This document shows positions 3,230 to 11,545 of a DNA stretch of 27,204 nucleotides, piece by piece (the first letter of the stretch is position 1; every line of letters starts with the position of its first letter). Origin of the DNA: a virus; the UHGV virus genome UHGV-0165622; one strand, given 5' to 3'. Position numbers and translations under genes: made by a program. The notes below the pieces were generated by a model. It had not been told where the DNA came from. It saw only the letters and a list, made by a program, of their open reading frames with translations, and searched no databases.

Positions 3230-3408
3230 GACTGCGGGTGCTTGAGGCTATCTGTCTCAGGCATGAACACCAAAAGGCAGATAGAGAAAAGCCCCAGTTA
3301 ACATTACGCGTCCTGCAAGACGCTTAACATTAATCTGAGGCCATATCTATGCGACACATAGAGATTAGCCTCTTACGGACCGAAAGGTCAAGGAGAAGCA
3401 GGCTATGA
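3230..3408 (+). promoter_or_regulatory. hok mRNA leader with mok-like upstream ORF (3349-3408) and probable antisense Sok target region
   Basis: 20-codon upstream ORF whose TGA overlaps the hok ATG (ctATGAag); inverted repeats in the leader (tatctgtctc / gcagatagag) fit hok/sok fold-back regulation. Confidence 0.4.
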
Positions 3409-3560
3409 AGCAGCAAAAGGCGATGTTAATCGCCCTGATCGTCATCTGTTTAACCGTCATAGTGACGGCACTGGTAACGAGGAAAGACCTCTGCGAGGTA
3501 CGAATCCGAACCGGCCAGACGGAGGTCGCTGTCTTCACAGCTTACGAACCTGAGGAGTAA
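3405..3560 (+). CDS. hokD: Hok/Gef family type I toxin (small membrane-depolarising peptide)
   Basis: 51 aa, MKQQKAMLIALIVICLTVIVTALVTRKDLCEVRIRTGQTEVAVFTAYEPEE; matches the Hok/Gef signature and is closest to HokD/RelF and HokC from memory; below the 60-aa cutoff of the ORF track. Confidence 0.85.
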   Translation: MKQQKAMLIALIVICLTVIVTALVTRKDLCEVRIRTGQTEVAVFTAYEPEE

Positions 3561-3628
3561 GAGACCCGGCGGGGGAGTAATCTCCCGCCACCTCTGATGT
3601 GCCAGGCATCCTCAACGCACCCGCACTT

Positions 3629-3650
3629 AACCCGCTTCGGCGGGTTTTTG
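3629..3650 (+). terminator. Rho-independent terminator after hok
   Basis: Hairpin cccgc-ttcg-gcggg followed by a T5 run. Confidence 0.7.
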
Positions 3651-3661
3651 CATTAGTCTGG

Positions 3662-3690
3662 TTGACAAAAATAGAAAAATGCGAAAATAT
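3662..3690 (+). promoter_or_regulatory. Putative sigma70 promoter for the 3726-5460 cassette
   Basis: Perfect -35 TTGACA at 3662-3667, 17-nt spacer, weak -10-like AAATAT; AT-rich context. Confidence 0.3.
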
Positions 3691-3725
3691 GTGGTTTACG
3701 AATTCTAAAAAAAGCGAAACTTGAA

Positions 3726-4376
3726 ATGAATGAAAATCAGTTAGCTCCTTGTTGGGAATTTCAACCTTATCTTGCTGAAAACTATGTTCGCCACTTGTTG
3801 GCGGAGATCGCTAACGTACTTGAGCAGCTGTACTATCATAAGCACGCATTAGACAGCAACTGGTCTGAAGGTGTAAGGGCTTATGATTGGGTCAGAAATC
3901 ATCTTATTCAAAATGAAGATGCAATTCCTGGCCTTGAGATGATTTCCAAGGGGTTGGACTATGTAGTTGCTTTAAATAAAGTTCCGCTACAATTTACCAA
4001 AGATTGCATTAATAACCCCAAAAAGAAACATCGTCTGCGTCGAAATAAAGTAGAGTATGAGCAGCTCTCATTGTTTGGTGATGTTGAGGCTGAGCAAGAT
4101 ATTACATGGCGAGTCATAGCTGAGCCTTTTTTATCCGAAGAGGGCGATGGTGAATTAGAGTCCACACTGCCTCGTTGGGAGGTAGCTCTTGTTGGATTTA
4201 ATACTTATGGTGCTCAGATTAGTATAGTTTCTCATCAATCTACAGCATCGATGCCGCTTATGCCTCTTGATTATAACACACTCCCTGACGAAGCGGAGAT
4301 TAATAAGGTGCCTCTTCGTCGGCGTACGAAGGATAAAGATTTGGATGTGAGCAGTGATGGAACATCAGGTGAATAA
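3726..4376 (+). CDS. Unknown 216-aa protein, upstream partner of the HTH/Zn-peptidase gene (candidate toxin or effector)
   Basis: ORF with no motif I recognise; low-GC codon usage; 3' end overlaps the downstream gene by about 20 nt. Confidence 0.7.
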   Translation: MNENQLAPCWEFQPYLAENYVRHLLAEIANVLEQLYYHKHALDSNWSEGVRAYDWVRNHLIQNEDAIPGLEMISKGLDYVVALNKVPLQFTKDCINNPKKKHRLRRNKVEYEQLSLFGDVEAEQDITWRVIAEPFLSEEGDGELESTLPRWEVALVGFNTYGAQISIVSHQSTASMPLMPLDYNTLPDEAEINKVPLRRRTKDKDLDVSSDGTSGE

Positions 4377-5460
4377 CTTCACTGAGTATCGGGGTGATAA
4401 GCTCAAACTAGCGAGAATGGCTGTTGGGCTTTCTTGTGAAGAGTTAGCCGAAAAAATTGGCAAGACAAAGCAATTCGTTAGCAAACTGGAGAAGGGGTGC
4501 AGGCCATCGGAGCAATGTCTTGAGTTAATATCTTCAGCGCTTATGATTAAGTCCAGTTTTCTTTTTACTGAACGAAAATACGCTCTGGAAAGTGATGTCT
4601 GCCATTTTCGGAGTAAGAAGTCCAGGACTCAAACGCTGACTAATAGTGTATTGGCCAGGGCTGAGATTCTTAATATTATAATTTCTGCTGTTGAAGGTGA
4701 AATCGAATTTCCTGACGTTAACATACCGGAGCACCCAGGGGCTGAATTACTTACTCCGAATGATATTGAGCGAGTGGCAGAAGATTGTCGCCGTGCCTGG
4801 AATTTAGGTCTTGGCCCTATATCATCAATGGTTAAATTGGCGGAGAGTTTAGGGGTAATCGTTGCGCATGTTACGGGAGTCGATGATCGTGTTGATGCTT
4901 TTACTGTTCACAATAACAGGCCTGTTATCATCAGGAACAATGTTAAAAAAAGCATATGTAGATTTCGCTCTGATTTAGGTCATGAATTAGGGCATTTAGT
5001 AATGCATGAGGGCATAACGACAGGTGATAAACTTACGGAATCACAAGCCGATCACTTTTCGAGCGCCTTATTAGTTCCCAGGTTATCTTTCATTAAAGAA
5101 TTTCCACGAATACGAGGTAAGCAATTCGACTGGAATGCTCTGGTTGAATTTAAACTTAGATGGAAAATCAGCCTTAAAATGTGTATTTATCGAGCCAGCG
5201 CATTAGGCTTATTGACCCAGGAACAGGCAAGAACTGGCTATATGCATCTTAATTCCAGAGGGTATACGAGAGTTGAACCTGGTGATGAACTTTTGCGCCC
5301 TGAAGAACCCGGCATGCTGGCCGAGGCGATTGAAATGCTGGATGATGCAACCTGGCTAAGAATTCTTATGAAAACTGGCTTGAGCCAAGATTTAATTCGT
5401 GAGTTGTTCTCCATCAACAGACCTATTACAAATCCAAGAAATATTTTCCAGATTGTTTGA
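4354..5460 (+). CDS. HTH_XRE plus ImmA/IrrE-family (COG2856, M78-like) zinc metallopeptidase fusion protein
   Basis: N-terminal XRE helix-turn-helix (LSCEELAEKIGKTKQFVSKLEKGCRPS); HEXXH zinc motif HELGH at about 4979-4993 with downstream Glu; 368 aa; GTG/ATG start overlapping the upstream gene. Confidence 0.85.
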   Translation: MMEHQVNNFTEYRGDKLKLARMAVGLSCEELAEKIGKTKQFVSKLEKGCRPSEQCLELISSALMIKSSFLFTERKYALESDVCHFRSKKSRTQTLTNSVLARAEILNIIISAVEGEIEFPDVNIPEHPGAELLTPNDIERVAEDCRRAWNLGLGPISSMVKLAESLGVIVAHVTGVDDRVDAFTVHNNRPVIIRNNVKKSICRFRSDLGHELGHLVMHEGITTGDKLTESQADHFSSALLVPRLSFIKEFPRIRGKQFDWNALVEFKLRWKISLKMCIYRASALGLLTQEQARTGYMHLNSRGYTRVEPGDELLRPEEPGMLAEAIEMLDDATWLRILMKTGLSQDLIRELFSINRPITNPRNIFQIV

Positions 5461-5464
5461 GTAT

Positions 5465-5486
5465 ACCCGCTTCGGCGGGTTTTTTG
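5465..5486 (+). terminator. Rho-independent terminator after the cassette
   Basis: Same hairpin as at 3629-3650 (acccgcttcggcggg) followed by a T6 run. Confidence 0.7.
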
Positions 5487-5646
5487 TTTTTATTTTCAAC
5501 GTGTTTGAAGTTTTGGACGGTGCCAGAATAGAATCAAAAATACTTAAGTAGCGCGCAGGGATAAGAGGGATGGTCCCTTAAAGGGGAGAGCTAATTATCC
5601 GGAAGGATTCTGATGATGAACATCGAAGAACTGCGTAAAATTTTTT

Positions 5647-5865
5647 GTGAAGATGGCCTTCTATGCTGTGTGCGTTGAAAATGGAAATCTTGTTAGTCAT
5701 TACCGCATTATGTGTTTGCGAAAGAATGGGGCTGCGTTAATTAATTTTGTGGATGCTCGGGTCACGGACGGATTTATCTTGCGCGACGGTGAGTTTGTCA
5801 CTTCATTACAGGTATTGAAAGAGATCGGAATAAAAGCAGGCTTTTCAGCTTTTGCAGAAGAATAA
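5647..5865 (+). CDS. Rem-like small prophage protein (possibly frameshifted at its N-terminus)
   Basis: 72-aa ORF; an upstream ATG at 5613 in another frame (MMNIEELRKIF...) would join in-frame if the T6 run at 5640-5646 were T5, giving an 83-aa product. Confidence 0.5.
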   Translation: MKMAFYAVCVENGNLVSHYRIMCLRKNGAALINFVDARVTDGFILRDGEFVTSLQVLKEIGIKAGFSAFAEE

Positions 5866-5931
5866 ACTCATCTACAATCTTGCGCGGGGCTGAACTCCCG
5901 CTGAGTAACACCGTGCCACCGGAGAAAACCG

Positions 5932-6210
5932 ATGGCACGCAACGCAAAATATTACAAACATGATAATTCGACCGTTCTTGCCCACACGCACGAGCGGTAT
6001 TCTCACGCATTTAAGTCAGACTGGTACCAGCATCCCCCATGCACTGAAGAACAGGCCGAATGGCTGATTCATAACTACCGCAGACGTGGATATGAGTTTA
6101 GGAAAGCCCTCACCCTCGATTATCGTCACTGGATAATCTACGTCAGACTCCCTTATTCCGAACGCCCACCGCGTCCGTCCCGCACATTCCAGCAACGCAT
6201 CTGGAGGTAA
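5932..6210 (+). CDS. Hypothetical basic protein
   Basis: 92-aa ORF ending 1 nt before the GTG start of the DUF968 gene. Confidence 0.45.
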   Translation: MARNAKYYKHDNSTVLAHTHERYSHAFKSDWYQHPPCTEEQAEWLIHNYRRRGYEFRKALTLDYRHWIIYVRLPYSERPPRPSRTFQQRIWR

Positions 6211-7273: not shown

Positions 7274-7633
7274 ATGCTCATAGATTTGGTTTTACCTTAC
7301 CCGCCGACGGTGAACACTTACTGGCGACGCCGTGGCAGCACATATTTTATCTCGGAGGAGGGAAAGCGTTATCGCCGGGCTGTGGCGCTTATTGTTCGCC
7401 AGCAGCGGCTGAAATTAAGCCTGTCCGGAAGGCTGGCGATAAAGGTGATTGCAGAGCCACCGGATAAGCGTCGTCGCGACCTGGACAATATCCTGAAAGC
7501 ACCGCTGGATGCGCTGACGCATGCGGGAGTGTTAATGGACGATGAGCAGTTTGATGAAATCAATATTGTAGGTGGTCAGCCAGTATCTGGTGGACGGCTG
7601 GGTGTGAAGATTTACAAAATTGAGAGTGAGTGA
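7274..7633 (+). CDS. rusA: RusA-family Holliday junction resolvase
   Basis: 119 aa; conserved RusA residues (PPTVNTYW, RRRDLDN, DALT..GV..DD) and AAAGAGG Shine-Dalgarno. Confidence 0.85.
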   Translation: MLIDLVLPYPPTVNTYWRRRGSTYFISEEGKRYRRAVALIVRQQRLKLSLSGRLAIKVIAEPPDKRRRDLDNILKAPLDALTHAGVLMDDEQFDEINIVGGQPVSGGRLGVKIYKIESE

Positions 7634-8196
7634 GCGTAAATATGATATATCCGGAAATTACAGGCAAAAGCGGCGAGCATTTACGTCTAAAAACGCTGGA
7701 AGCAGTCTGGATCCAGGGGAAATTACGGATGTGGGGGCGGTGGTCGTATATTGGCGGCGGTAAGACGGGAAATATGTTCAACCAATTACTGACCTCTAAA
7801 AAGCTGACAAAAACGGCAATTAACGAGGCGCTCCGGAGGATGAAAAAAGCTGGTCTGGACAAACCTGAACTTGAGGCTTTTTTGCGGGATATGATCAACG
7901 GCAATCAAAAAAGCTGGCTGGCACATTGTACCGATTCAGAGGCGTTAATAATCGACAGGGTTATTGGTGAAGTCCTGGCAGGCTATCCCGGGCTGCTCAA
8001 TGTCCTGAGTCAGCGTTATGTGGGGCGGGGGATGACTAAGCGCAAAATGGCTGAACTGCTGAATGATGCACACCCGGAATGGAGTTTAAGAACCTGTGAA
8101 AGACGCATTGAGCATTGGCTAAAGGTGGCAGAATTTATTTTGTACAAACCAATGGTTATGGCTTTTGGTATAGAGAAAAAAGTTATTGCTTTTTGA
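7630..8196 (+). CDS. Putative late-gene antiterminator Q-like protein
   Basis: 188-aa ORF in the canonical Q position (after rusA, before the tR'-like terminator and lysis region); loose similarity to phage-21/DLP12-type Q from memory. Confidence 0.55.
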   Translation: MSVNMIYPEITGKSGEHLRLKTLEAVWIQGKLRMWGRWSYIGGGKTGNMFNQLLTSKKLTKTAINEALRRMKKAGLDKPELEAFLRDMINGNQKSWLAHCTDSEALIIDRVIGEVLAGYPGLLNVLSQRYVGRGMTKRKMAELLNDAHPEWSLRTCERRIEHWLKVAEFILYKPMVMAFGIEKKVIAF

Positions 8197-8618: not shown

Positions 8619-8987
8619 AGGCTTTTTTATTTGTGGTAAATGGGCGGCTGGTGGGTGTGGTGGTTGTTGCTTTCCCGTTGCTGAAAAAGAAAACGCCAGA
8701 CTGTTAGCCGGGTATCAGTTATCTGGAGAAATTTTTAAATACCTCACAATTCAGGCGGTTGACTGTTGTCTGGTTTGCGGGGAGTTTGTTAAAAGAAACT
8801 GGCATGGTGAATCCCCCTGTGCGGAGGGGCAATCAGCGAGTAGGTATATGGGATAATCGCGGATTCAGGTGCTGGTACTGAATTCACCGGGAGGCACCCG
8901 GCACCATGCAATGGCACATAGCGCCACTCTCCAGCCCCTCTCCGGAGGGGCTGTTTATATTGATTTTGTCAGATGTGAGTAAACTCC

Positions 8988-9323
8988 TTATGGACTTTGT
9001 TGTTTTAGTCCATAAGGACATATTTGCAGAGTGCAACGGTTATTAAAGCATTCATTCAATACGTTATCTGTATTTGTAGGACATTCCTGGCTGTTTTTGA
9101 TTAAATTCCAGAATGTTTTATTGAATGGTACTACGTTGTAAATGGTTAAAGGTAGCACTTTGTTATTGAGCATGATACCTGTGTGAGTCAGTGTAAATAT
9201 ACTTTCAGGAGGTAAGAAAGCATCCGATTGATACCAGATTATTAATTTTATTTTACTCCATATGACTGAAAAAGATATTCCGCATGATGGCTGGATAACT
9301 GTATCAATCACAATCCACTTCAT
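8988..9323 (-). CDS. Hypothetical Cys-containing protein in an AT-rich island, opposite strand to the late operon
   Basis: 111-aa ORF; good Shine-Dalgarno (AAGGAAA) upstream of the ATG on the minus strand; AT-rich composition unlike flanking phage genes; an 11-bp perfect inverted repeat (ccttatggact/agtccataagg) lies at its 3' end. Confidence 0.5.
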
Positions 9324-9568
9324 TTAGTTTCCTTGTTTATGTCTTGCTGGTGATGTTCTGAAAAGTATAAATGATATTTTTGAATGTAAACCATAGAGCA
9401 GAATTATTTTTCTGATGTTGTTTATTGTTTATTTAAATGCAGGGTGGTTTATATCTCGTCTTGTAGTTTATCCATGCATATCTGCTTGATGATGAGGTTT
9501 TTATTTAAGGTATGGTTTTGTGTTTTTTCTGTATTACATGTCAGGTATTTTAAAGAATTATTTTTCAG

Positions 9569-11545
9569 ATGGTGGAAAGAACCATGGCATTTAAACACTA
9601 TGATGTTGTCAGGGCGGCATCGCCGTCAGACCTTGCGAAACGACTGACACAAAAACTGAAGGAGGGGTGGCAGCCATTTGGCAGTCCGGTGGCCATCACG
9701 CCTTATACCCTGATGCAGGCCATTGCGGCGGAAGGTGATGTCACCACACCTGTGGTGGTGAAGCCGTCGGATGGAGAAGGCGCAGTTATCAGCACCACCA
9801 GCAACCCGGAGTATTACTTTGTTGTTGCCCTGGCCGGGCAGTCAAACGGTATGGCGTATGGTGAAGGGCTTCCGCTGCCGGAGACATATGACCGTCCGGA
9901 CCCGCGTATTAAACAGCTGGCGCGTCGCAGCACTGTCACGCCGGGTGGTGCGTCCTGTAACTACAATGACATTATTCCTGCGGACCACTGCCTGCATGAT
10001 GTTCAGGATTTGAGTAAGTTTTCACACCCGAAAGCCAGCGCAGCTCAGTATGGATGCGTGGGGCAGGGATTACATATCGCGAAGAAATTGTTGCCGTTTA
10101 TTCCGGCGAATGCCGGTATTCTTCTGGTTCCGTGCTGCCGTGGTGGTTCTGCATTTTTGGCGGGCGATGAAGGTACCTTCAGCGAATCCACCGGCGCAAG
10201 CGAGACCTCGGCACGCTGGGGTGTTGATAAGCCACTGTACAAGGACCTGCTTACCCGTACTCAGGCCGCACTGAAGGCCAACCCTAAAAATATTCTGCTT
10301 GCAGTGGTCTGGATGCAGGGCGAGTTTGATTTGAAACAGGGTGCATACGCCACTCAGCCGGGGCTGTTTGATTCCATGGTGGAAAAATATCGTTCTGACC
10401 TGTCGGAATTCGGAGGTCAGTGTCTCGGGGGCTCTCCGTCATCGGTTCCCTGGATTTGTGGCGACACGACCTACTACTGGAAGCAGACTTATTCTTCGCA
10501 ATACGATGCGGTGTATGGTGCATACAAGACGAAATCCGCAAAAAAAATCTTCTTTGTGCCGTTTATGACGGATGAAAACGGGCGAAATGTGGGTACCAAC
10601 GAGCCGTCAGAAGATCCGGATGTTGCGGATATTGGGTATTACGGAGCCGGTGGTCGAACGGACGCCAAAACCTGGACGACGGCCGACCGTAAAACGCATT
10701 TTGGATCATGGGCACGTCGTGGGATTATTTCCGACCGTCTGGCAACGGCGATTCTTGTGCATGCCGGGAGAAACGCTGAATTCATTACCGGAAAACAGCC
10801 TGATACGGTGAAGCCCACCGGACCTTCCGGTGAAGGTACGGAGAGAGAGCCGGAAGCCCCGGTCAGTAACCGAACCCTGATGAGTCTGCTGGCGTCCGGC
10901 GAAGACCTGGCATCACAGGGCTGGCGCTATTATCACAAACCGGCGAGCGGAGACAATGTTAACAAAAACATTGCTGAAGCGGTGGTCAGTGATGCGGGGG
11001 CTACGGGAGGTAAGGCCCTGCAACTGAATAAACCGGAAAACCACATCTGGTTTCTGGAGCATGATGCAGCCGGACAGGGAGTGGAGTTACTGAAGAAGGG
11101 GGGACGTGTGAGCGTACGGTTTAAGTTGCCGGGTTCACTGGTGCCGAATCAGTTTGCCCTGGGCATTTACTGGCAGTTGTCGTCCCTGCCGGAGGGAGTG
11201 ACGCTGGCAGAGGAAGGCAACGACATGCTGATGTCCTTCTTCCTGCAGACGGATGCGACGAACCTGAACGCGATGCACCACAAGAAGCCGAATGCGAAGC
11301 TGGATACGTTCGGGGTCTTTGATAACGGATGGCACACACTGGCTTTTGAGTTTGCCGGAAACAACAGCATTCAGGTGACGCCGGTACTGGATGAGAAACG
11401 GGGGACGCCGTTCACACTGGTGAAATCTCCGGCATCAGGGGCGGCGGACAAACTGCAACTGACAGGCATATCAAAGGCGGCGACATATACGCTGCTGATT
11501 GACAGTGTGAAGGTGGAAGTGAACAACGCGGACATCGCGGCATGA
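9569..11545 (+). CDS. nanS-p: Prophage sialate O-acetylesterase NanS-p-type protein (N-terminal DUF1737, SGNH/GQSN esterase core)
   Basis: 658 aa; N-terminus MAFKHYDVVRAASPSDLAKRL; esterase motif ALAGQSNGMAYGEG; sits where Stx phages carry the homologous gene between stx and the lysis cassette. Confidence 0.8.
   Translation: MVERTMAFKHYDVVRAASPSDLAKRLTQKLKEGWQPFGSPVAITPYTLMQAIAAEGDVTTPVVVKPSDGEGAVISTTSNPEYYFVVALAGQSNGMAYGEGLPLPETYDRPDPRIKQLARRSTVTPGGASCNYNDIIPADHCLHDVQDLSKFSHPKASAAQYGCVGQGLHIAKKLLPFIPANAGILLVPCCRGGSAFLAGDEGTFSESTGASETSARWGVDKPLYKDLLTRTQAALKANPKNILLAVVWMQGEFDLKQGAYATQPGLFDSMVEKYRSDLSEFGGQCLGGSPSSVPWICGDTTYYWKQTYSSQYDAVYGAYKTKSAKKIFFVPFMTDENGRNVGTNEPSEDPDVADIGYYGAGGRTDAKTWTTADRKTHFGSWARRGIISDRLATAILVHAGRNAEFITGKQPDTVKPTGPSGEGTEREPEAPVSNRTLMSLLASGEDLASQGWRYYHKPASGDNVNKNIAEAVVSDAGATGGKALQLNKPENHIWFLEHDAAGQGVELLKKGGRVSVRFKLPGSLVPNQFALGIYWQLSSLPEGVTLAEEGNDMLMSFFLQTDATNLNAMHHKKPNAKLDTFGVFDNGWHTLAFEFAGNNSIQVTPVLDEKRGTPFTLVKSPASGAADKLQLTGISKAATYTLLIDSVKVEVNNADIAA

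Follow-up and report, generated by a model that had tools for sequence, protein, structure and literature searches.

The window analysed here is the whole stretch of 27,204 nucleotides from the virus genome UHGV-0165622, and the locus of interest consists of two genes on its + strand, rmrT (3726..4376), which codes for a 216-aa protein, and rmrA (4357..5460), which codes for a 367-aa protein. A sequence-only reading of this DNA had described two + strand reading frames overlapping by about 20 nt, and the overlap is indeed 20 nt when the second gene begins with ATG. The candidate starts of rmrA are GTG 4354 and ATG 4357; the latter, which yields the 367-aa product, is the RefSeq start and the sole start kept among diverged relatives. 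The cassette is as AT-rich as had been noticed, with a GC content of 41.5%, while the window as a whole has 50.3% and the upstream 3.6 kb have 45.5%. The hok locus said to lie beside it is a true hok/sok type I toxin-antitoxin locus (3236..3560, + strand), in which Rfam sok RF01794 is found at 3236-3407 with 106.7 bits and the product of the hokD ORF (3405-3560), named after the annotation of the same gene in E. coli 042, matches Pfam HOK_GEF (E 1.2e-23).

The terminators that had been proposed to bracket the cassette are present as a terminator-like hairpin with a T run at each end (3629-3646 and 5465-5480), and both sites correspond to the same exact 20-mer, ACCCGCTTCGGCGGGTTTTT, which forms a direct repeat on the + strand. 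The left copy (3630..3649) is the hokD terminator hairpin and marks the left junction, while the right copy (5465..5484) serves as the terminator of the cassette and marks the right one, the cassette having inserted cleanly, as 1835 bp, into the hokD terminator. A copy with 100% identity is present in 237 of the 5426 complete E. coli genomes, with strains 042, ABU 83972 and VR50 among the carriers, and the uninterrupted site, matched in one piece, is found in 2774 of the 5426. The clean insertion and its absence from 2774 genomes with the same flanks support its status as accessory cargo. Promoter, two genes and terminator make the cassette a self-contained and dispensable unit within an E. 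coli lambdoid prophage.

The promoter and leader occupy positions 3660..3725 of the + strand, with the TTGACA -35 element pointed out earlier at 3662-3667 and a candidate -10 element, AAATAT, at 3685-3690. A generic promoter scan calls no promoter at TTGACA 3662-3667, because the -10 candidate is weak. Over the 69 nt that run from GGTTGACA up to the ATG, 60 positions (87%) are nevertheless identical in two diverged cassettes (L055 and L059), whose proteins are only 60-73% identical to those of the query and whose sequences further upstream are unrelated; since the leader is more conserved than the proteins, it is an element under selection. TTGACA(A) is present about 55 nt upstream in distant family members too. 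The region is made of two imperfect 33-nt direct repeats (3660-3692 and 3693-3725), both of which contain GGTTnAC and GCGAAA and which match at 20/33 positions in register and at 22/33 at the best offset. Tandem Repeats Finder does not call the 33-nt repeat, and its sole support comes from our custom shuffle test, in which 0 of 2000 shuffles reached 22/33. We regard these repeats as a putative RmrA operator.

RmrA contains the N-terminal XRE helix-turn-helix (HTH) and the HELGH zinc-peptidase motif that had been read from the sequence: Pfam HTH_3 matches aa 16-62 (about nt 4393-4566, E 5e-7), Peptidase_M78 matches aa 176-281 (about nt 4882-5199, E 6.5e-11), and the HELGH motif is intact at aa 209-213 (nt 4981-4995), followed downstream by the usual acidic motif E228-x3-D-x-F. 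A further C-terminal region follows the peptidase. HELGH is kept in 23 of 23 prophage loci, which were taken from 53 retrieved for closer analysis and span 100% to 50% in toxin identity. The PADLOC RmrA model PDLC03943 matches aa 11-350 (E 6.2e-105) and 13 further RmrA models also match, the next-best non-Rosmer match in PADLOC being CapP (E 1.6e-14). The only matches of the RmrA sequence in the PDB are HTH repressors.

RmrT is an acidic (pI 4.9), soluble protein without a transmembrane segment, which has no match in Pfam or NCBIfam; neither database gives anything consistent for 55 diverse RmrT homologues. It matches the PADLOC RmrT model PDLC03929 over profile positions 5-195 of 198 (E 4.6e-25), a model that all 55 homologues match as well, and PHROG 5786 (E 8e-85). 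A toxin profile finds nothing among PDB sequences. Although an earlier AlphaFold run with 13 close homologues gave a poor model (pLDDT 62), the AlphaFold2 model built with the 55-sequence alignment has a pLDDT of 87.9, and Foldseek finds no significant match to it in the PDB. RmrT is probably cytoplasmic, and a restriction-endonuclease-like fold is weakly suggested for it. The RmrT family does not contain the catalytic D...(D/E)xK motif that PD-(D/E)xK nucleases have on strands 2 and 3: D79 is present in part of the family only, and strand 3 carries [QRK]89-F without an acidic-x-K motif. The polar residues that are conserved in the family are D43, E110, Q113, R129 and E133.

The toxin is carried by 53 IMG/VR prophage contigs, and a tblastn search with it against 50,697 deposited phage genomes gives no match. 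A gene of roughly 360-375 aa coding for an HTH+M78 protein lies directly downstream of the toxin gene in all 23 prophage loci analysed, in a Vibrio thalassae locus considered below and in four of the four distant members examined, whose neighbourhoods are unrelated. The pair moves between prophage contexts. Gene pair, 69-nt promoter/leader and HELGH motif persist among diverged prophages as well as at unrelated chromosomal locations. The dN/dS values are 0.04-0.17 for rmrT and 0.02-0.04 for rmrA. Toxin and antitoxin genes are invariably found as a pair, and purifying selection acts on both.

What kind of module this is can be judged by comparison with characterized systems. In Vibrio mimicus VM573, Vmi480 is lethal when expressed in E. 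coli and is neutralised by co-expressed Vmi470, while the Vmi470 peptidase alone is harmless; the toxin is in use as a counter-selection marker (Luo et al. 2015, PMC4671572). As a stand-in for the VM573 sequence itself we used the V. thalassae orthologue, which was identified via primer-encoded termini and fits the published pair in its protein lengths (198 and 362 aa), in the 5-bp spacer between the genes and in each of these four termini. RmrT is 26% identical to the Vmi480 orthologue over 176 aa (BLASTP, E 7e-15), i.e., over most of its length, and RmrA is 47% identical to the Vmi470 orthologue (E 1e-123). In both cases the toxin gene comes first and the gene for the HTH and zinc-peptidase antitoxin lies directly downstream, the two forming an operon that has a promoter of its own, and both match the same PADLOC models, PDLC03929 and PDLC03943. 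The differences are that the Vibrio genes are separated by a 5-bp spacer whereas those of the cassette overlap by 20 nt, that RmrT, with 216 aa against the 198 aa of Vmi480, is longer in its acidic insert and tail, and that the Vibrio pair is located on a mobilisable genomic island (PMC4671572) whereas the cassette resides in an E. coli lambdoid prophage. Judged by sequence, gene 1 belongs to a gammaproteobacterial toxin family of about 200 aa (PDLC03929, the Vmi480 family).

Rosmer systems are defined by their antitoxin, which is paired with swappable toxins, and the RosmerTA of E. coli OLC-716 is an experimentally verified defence system whose rmrA could not be deleted (Millman et al. 2022). 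It has the same two-gene architecture as the cassette, and its RmrA is 29% identical to the one described here over 301 aa (E 2e-35) with the same HELGH...E-x3-D-x-F motifs, but the two RmrT proteins share no sequence similarity (best E 7). It is thus the antitoxin, together with a match to another RmrT profile, that ties the cassette to Rosmer. A related pair is the prophage pair E101_02645/E101_02644 of E. coli E101, which makes clpP essential, an effect relieved by the toxin mutation T46S (Rousset et al. 2021, bioRxiv 10.1101/2020.05.25.114553). Since its authors report identities of 33% to Vmi480 and 42% to Vmi470, the pair would by transitivity belong to the same family as the cassette. 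Its toxin, like RmrT, has no predicted domain, and both are E. coli prophage pairs, but the accessions are different (WP_001179380.1/WP_000481765.1 versus WP_001004956.1/WP_000401168.1 here). ClpP dependence is known from the E101 pair only, and a ClpP link for the cassette would depend on these reported identities. Finally, RmrTA of Gordonia phage Kita protects against some BASEL coliphages (Ernits et al. 2023, PMC10440598); it too is a Rosmer module borne by a phage, and its antitoxin is a protease of the ImmA type, but its RmrT D5 is membrane-targeted and depolarising, unlike the acidic, soluble RmrT described here.

It is therefore highly probable that the cassette represents the Vmi480/Vmi470 subtype of RosmerTA toxin-antitoxin modules, here in a lambdoid E. 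coli prophage, with an XRE HTH fused to an M78/ImmA-IrrE peptidase that matches the RmrA profile and an adjacent co-oriented gene that matches an RmrT profile. The HMM search that the sequence-only reading had recommended, in which each protein matched a PADLOC Rosmer model, upholds its guess of a RosmerTA-type module. By analogy with the systems above, RmrT is expected to be toxic and to be neutralised by RmrA, and the cassette may by the same reasoning confer resistance to phages. The system is of an already known kind that is recognised by standard tools.

The same toxin-antitoxin module may, however, serve mainly to stabilise the prophage by killing the cells that lose it, rather than to provide anti-phage immunity, an explanation that we consider unlikely although worth taking seriously. 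The cassette adjoins hok/sok, a classic post-segregational killing locus, some of its distant homologues adjoin integrases or sit on genomic islands, as Vmi480/Vmi470 sits on a mobilisable one, and the phage protection known for Rosmer systems comes from modules with toxins other than the Vmi480 type. On the other hand, the antitoxins of the protective systems of OLC-716 and Kita are homologous to RmrA, and several prophages carry the module as a moron in their late-regulatory region, which is usual for superinfection-exclusion cargo. Addiction and defence roles are not mutually exclusive.

Another way to read a RosmerTA-like pair is to reverse the roles, so that the HTH-peptidase would be the toxic protein and the upstream protein its antidote. 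This is the arrangement in PD-lambda-2, where the Xre-peptidase alone is toxic and is rescued by an upstream HigB-like protein (Vassallo et al. 2022), and COG2856 was predicted to be a toxin by Makarova et al. 2009. For the cassette we find it very improbable: in the Vibrio pair it is the upstream protein that kills on its own, the peptidase that is harmless, and their co-expression that rescues, the E101 suppressor mutations fall in the upstream gene, and the rmrA of OLC-716 resists deletion.

The pair might also be the immunity switch of the prophage itself, an ImmR/ImmA-like repressor with an anti-repressor protease acting on phage promoters, given that HTH+M78 proteins include the repressor-cleaving ImmA and IrrE and that the HTH has a target on DNA, as seen from the conserved operator-like repeats. 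We consider this extremely improbable, because that conserved target is the promoter of the cassette, no separate ImmR-like substrate gene adjoins it, a separate cI/cro-like immunity region lies about 7.7 kb upstream of it in E. coli 042, the same pair is found at non-prophage chromosomal sites, and 2774 genomes with otherwise matching flanks do without it. ImmA/ImmR, IrrE/DdrO and CapP/CapH share with RmrA the functional coupling of an M78 HExxH peptidase to an XRE HTH, but there protease and repressor are two distinct proteins and regulate other genes, whereas in RmrA they are fused and paired with a toxin. An ImmR/ImmA switch was accordingly rejected as a candidate: the HTH is fused to the protease, the neighbour is a toxin homologue, and the cassette is optional, with neither an adjoining repressor gene nor a location in the immunity region.

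That the module is a defence system whose effector belongs to no described family, as the sequence-only reading had it, has almost no probability left, for although the lack of Pfam and NCBIfam matches, the RefSeq name and the dissimilarity to the verified RmrT of OLC-716 all agree with it, the protein matches PDLC03929 and PHROG 5786 and is homologous to the experimentally toxic Vmi480 (26%, E 7e-15). A match to a well-characterised family, which that reading had named as a reason to abandon its proposal, was found in part: what the protein matches is a catalogued family of validated toxicity, though not one characterised biochemically.

How the RosmerTA module would work can be outlined as follows, our search of the Rosmer literature having returned no mechanistic paper. 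In the lysogen, both genes would be driven by the promoter with the strong -35 element, and the HTH of RmrA would bind the GGTTnAC...GCGAAA sites overlapping the -35 element and the leader, so that the operon would be auto-repressed. RmrT would be held inactive by RmrA, and the strict conservation of HExxH, together with the ClpP dependence of the related E101 pair, suggests proteolysis rather than simple sequestration. An infecting phage may then upset the balance, be it by a trigger protein, by host shut-off or by damage to DNA; the freed RmrT would probably act on nucleic acid, growth would stop and the infection would be aborted. The steps of this scheme that we infer include the binding of RmrA to its operator, neutralisation by proteolysis and triggering by a phage. 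A more specific version, which is speculative and which we hold to be rather unlikely in full, is that RmrT is a degenerate protein of the restriction-endonuclease fold with a non-canonical active or binding site formed by the five conserved polar residues, that it is cleaved by the zinc peptidase of RmrA and the fragments are cleared by ClpP, and that the leader repeats are the RmrA operator. Such a "protease antitoxin" logic, if true, would be unlike the sequestration of classical type II systems.

The discovery value of the assignment is small, since the PADLOC Rosmer models already match both proteins strongly and the toxin family has been validated since 2015. Its value lies in annotation: the names RmrT (Vmi480 family) and RmrA can replace "hypothetical protein" and "helix-turn-helix domain-containing protein", under which RefSeq lists the pair in 237 complete E. 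coli genomes. To this the analysis adds several leads for the family, namely a weakly supported nuclease-like fold of the toxin, a set of conserved residues, and a strongly conserved promoter/operator region.

As the sequence-only reading had described, the cassette carries two overlapping plus-strand ORFs. The first, rmrT (3726-4376), codes for a putative toxin of 216 aa; the second, rmrA, extends from a GTG at 4354 or an ATG at 4357 to 5460 and codes for the putative antitoxin, 367 aa long when read from the ATG. The latter codon is the RefSeq start (WP_000401168.1, 367 aa) and the sole start codon conserved among diverged relatives, and thus the overlap is 20 nt. Pfam confirms the claimed combination of an N-terminal XRE helix-turn-helix with an HELGH zinc-peptidase motif in the second product, placing HTH_3 at aa 16-62 and Peptidase_M78 at aa 176-281, with HELGH at aa 209-213 and, from E228 onward, the usual acidic motif. 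The 216-aa protein has no match in Pfam or NCBIfam. In PADLOC, it matches the RmrT model PDLC03929 (E 4.6e-25, profile positions 5-195 of 198), and the 367-aa protein matches the RmrA model PDLC03943 (E 6.2e-105) as well as thirteen other RmrA models, so the guess of a RosmerTA-type module was right. The PHROGs families of the pair are 5786 (unknown function) for the toxin and 2439 for the antitoxin.

The name RosmerTA goes back to Millman et al. 2022, who described a Zn-peptidase antitoxin paired with a toxin whose function was unknown and credited prior toxin-antitoxin work to Luo 2015 and Rousset 2021. The system that they verified is that of E. coli OLC-716; its RmrA resembles that of the window (29% identity, E 2e-35), whereas the two RmrT proteins are unrelated, which fits the view of Rosmer as an antitoxin hub whose toxins can be exchanged. 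When 1.84 billion cluster representatives were searched exhaustively with a profile, the window toxin fell into a family of 69 clusters (E <= 1e-3), in which most proteins measure 195-225 aa. The members come from Enterobacterales, Aeromonas, Vibrio, Photobacterium, Pseudomonas and Methylobacter, and every one is labelled hypothetical. All 55 aligned full-length members match PDLC03929 and no other PADLOC model, and a consistent Pfam match was found in none of the 55.

It was shown that vmi480 (198 aa), from a genomic island of Vibrio mimicus, alone kills E. coli, that vmi470 (362 aa, HTH and Zn peptidase), which lies 5 bp downstream, neutralises it when co-expressed, and that a single deletion of vmi470 is not obtainable (Luo et al. 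2015, PMC4671572); vmi480 now serves as a counter-selection marker (PMC4671572). An orthologue was sought by scanning reference genomes with a degenerate pattern back-translated from the cloning primer of Luo et al. The Vibrio thalassae locus L065 agrees with the published primers in all checkable respects: a 198-aa toxin (termini MTKKPEFY...QKKVSDE), a 5-bp intergenic spacer and a 362-aa antitoxin (MIYQAVN...PLRSV). With this locus as a stand-in for Vmi480/Vmi470, identity to the window pair is 26% for the toxin (E 7e-15) and 47% for the antitoxin (E 1e-123). Because the L065 pair shows this homology and also matches PDLC03929 and PDLC03943, the cassette is, as judged by homology, a Vmi480/Vmi470-type RosmerTA. 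The suggestion that its effector belongs to no described family was mistaken, given the PDLC03929 match and the homology to Vmi480, whose toxicity had already been demonstrated. An E. coli E101 prophage pair, with 33% identity to Vmi480 and 42% to Vmi470, renders clpP essential, and the toxin substitution T46S relieves this (Rousset et al., bioRxiv 10.1101/2020.05.25.114553); its accessions differ from those of the window pair, to which it is likened indirectly, through the authors' stated identities to Vmi480/Vmi470.

Relatives of the cassette at 50-100% identity occur on 53 IMG/VR prophage contigs, 23 of which, with toxin identities from 100% to 50%, form our detailed set. In all 23, an rmrA with HELGH lies downstream of the toxin gene, overlapping it by 14-20 nt except in L059, where the script gave an earlier in-frame start; the neighbours vary, with hok in some loci and in others the Q antiterminator gene, which may stand before or after the pair. 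Divergence is faster in the toxin than in the antitoxin (e.g., 50% vs 63% identity), and both genes are under purifying selection: where dS is unsaturated, dN/dS is 0.04-0.17 in the toxin gene and 0.02-0.04 in the antitoxin gene. Four distant toxin genes (<25% identity to that of the window), found in metagenomes and in unrelated genomes, each precede a 371-377-aa HTH and M78 gene; their neighbourhoods are unrelated, and two of the four adjoin integrases. On Methylobacter-type contigs (L004-L006, 3163-5717) the Rosmer pair comes directly after a HigB-toxin pair, and in L008 (1787-6603) its neighbours are a phage integrase on one side and, on the other, a DUF2188 gene with a reverse-transcriptase gene; such clustering resembles a defence or toxin-antitoxin island. 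That the module serves addiction rather than defence is conceivable but rather improbable, and the two roles are not mutually exclusive.

The cassette is AT-rich relative to the phage backbone, as had been noticed (41.5% GC, where the window as a whole has 50.3% and the 3.6 kb upstream have 45.5%), and its reported setting likewise holds: a complete hok/sok locus lies upstream, and terminator-like hairpins at 3629-3646 and 5465-5480 bracket it. There are exactly two copies of the 20-mer ACCCGCTTCGGCGGGTTTTT, one at 3630-3649 and one at 5465-5484. When 5426 complete E. coli genomes were compared with an 'empty site' built by joining 3300-3649 directly to 5485-6200, 2774 of them matched it unbroken at ~96% identity, as hokD-rem-hypothetical; 237 of the 5426 contain the full cassette, nearly all at >=99% identity. 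The cassette is therefore an optional 1835-bp insertion into the hokD terminator. Related cassettes (83-87% identical) in L044, L045 and L050, three further prophage settings, also have on both flanks AACCCGC-loop-GCGGGTTTTT terminator hairpins with different loops, and such common terminators may be the recombination sites that move the cassette between prophages. In E. coli FDAARGOS_1249 (NZ_CP069459.1 1256685-1259711), an otherwise 100% identical cassette region is cut in two by an IS5 family transposase and may represent a natural knock-out of the module.

Elsewhere in the window, a full-length Rfam STnc100 sRNA (132 bits, 8773-8962, plus strand) comes shortly after the Q antiterminator gene (7630-8196), where a late-promoter leader transcript would be positioned. 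The lowest GC of the window follows (8988-9500; 32.6% in 9001-9500), where a minus-strand ORF (8988-9323, 111 aa) without a Pfam match may be another piece of cargo, inserted between Q and the esterase/lysis region. The product of the plus-strand gene at 9569-11545 is 658 aa long, has DUF1737, SASA (sialate O-acetylesterase) and DUF6645 domains, and is annotated in E. coli 042 as a SASA family carbohydrate esterase. In E. coli 042, Q and the esterase are separated by three tRNA genes and a DNA methyltransferase, whereas ARAGORN found no tRNA gene in the whole window; the late-regulatory region thus differs between prophages with an identical cassette.

The -35 element attributed to the cassette, TTGACA, is present at 3662-3667 in a well-conserved leader, but a generic sigma-70 scan called no promoter there, the -10 candidate that fits best, AAATAT after a 17-nt spacer, being weak. 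Identity over the 69 nt that run from GGTTGACA to the toxin ATG is 87% between cassettes with saturated synonymous sites and 60-73% protein identity; further upstream, the sequences of these cassettes are unrelated. These 69 nt hold two imperfect 33-nt direct repeats, both with GGTTnAC and GCGAAA, at a score reached by none of 2000 shuffles. We infer a real promoter with an overlapping putative operator for the RmrA HTH. In distant family members (L002, L004, L007, L008), a consensus TTGACA(A) precedes the toxin start by ~55 nt, and at 2850-3000 of L007 there are four TTGACA(A/C) copies at intervals of 15-18 nt; TTGACA(A) may be both the -35 element and the RmrA recognition site. An ImmR/ImmA-like prophage immunity switch is an unlikely reading of the pair: the conserved DNA target is the cassette's own promoter, the prophage has a separate cI/cro-like region, and the cassette is optional and also found outside prophages.

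By analogy with homologues, for which this was shown or published, the upstream protein would be the toxin and the peptidase fusion its antidote; the reversed roles of PD-lambda-2 are contradicted by the Vmi480/Vmi470 experiments and highly improbable. The RmrT of Gordonia phage Kita is membrane-depolarising, whereas the window toxin is set apart from it by being acidic (pI 4.9) and soluble. The canonical catalytic motif of PD-(D/E)xK nucleases is not conserved across the toxin family, in which the conserved polar residues are D43, E110, Q113, R129 and E133; an activity directed at nucleic acid is a tentative best guess. RmrA might neutralise the toxin by proteolysis, a more attractive possibility than plain sequestration because HExxH is strictly kept in every RmrA and the E101 pair is reportedly ClpP-dependent. 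The locus is already known in kind, and standard defence-finder tools would label it Rosmer; the remaining value lies in the improved annotation and a few mechanistic leads.
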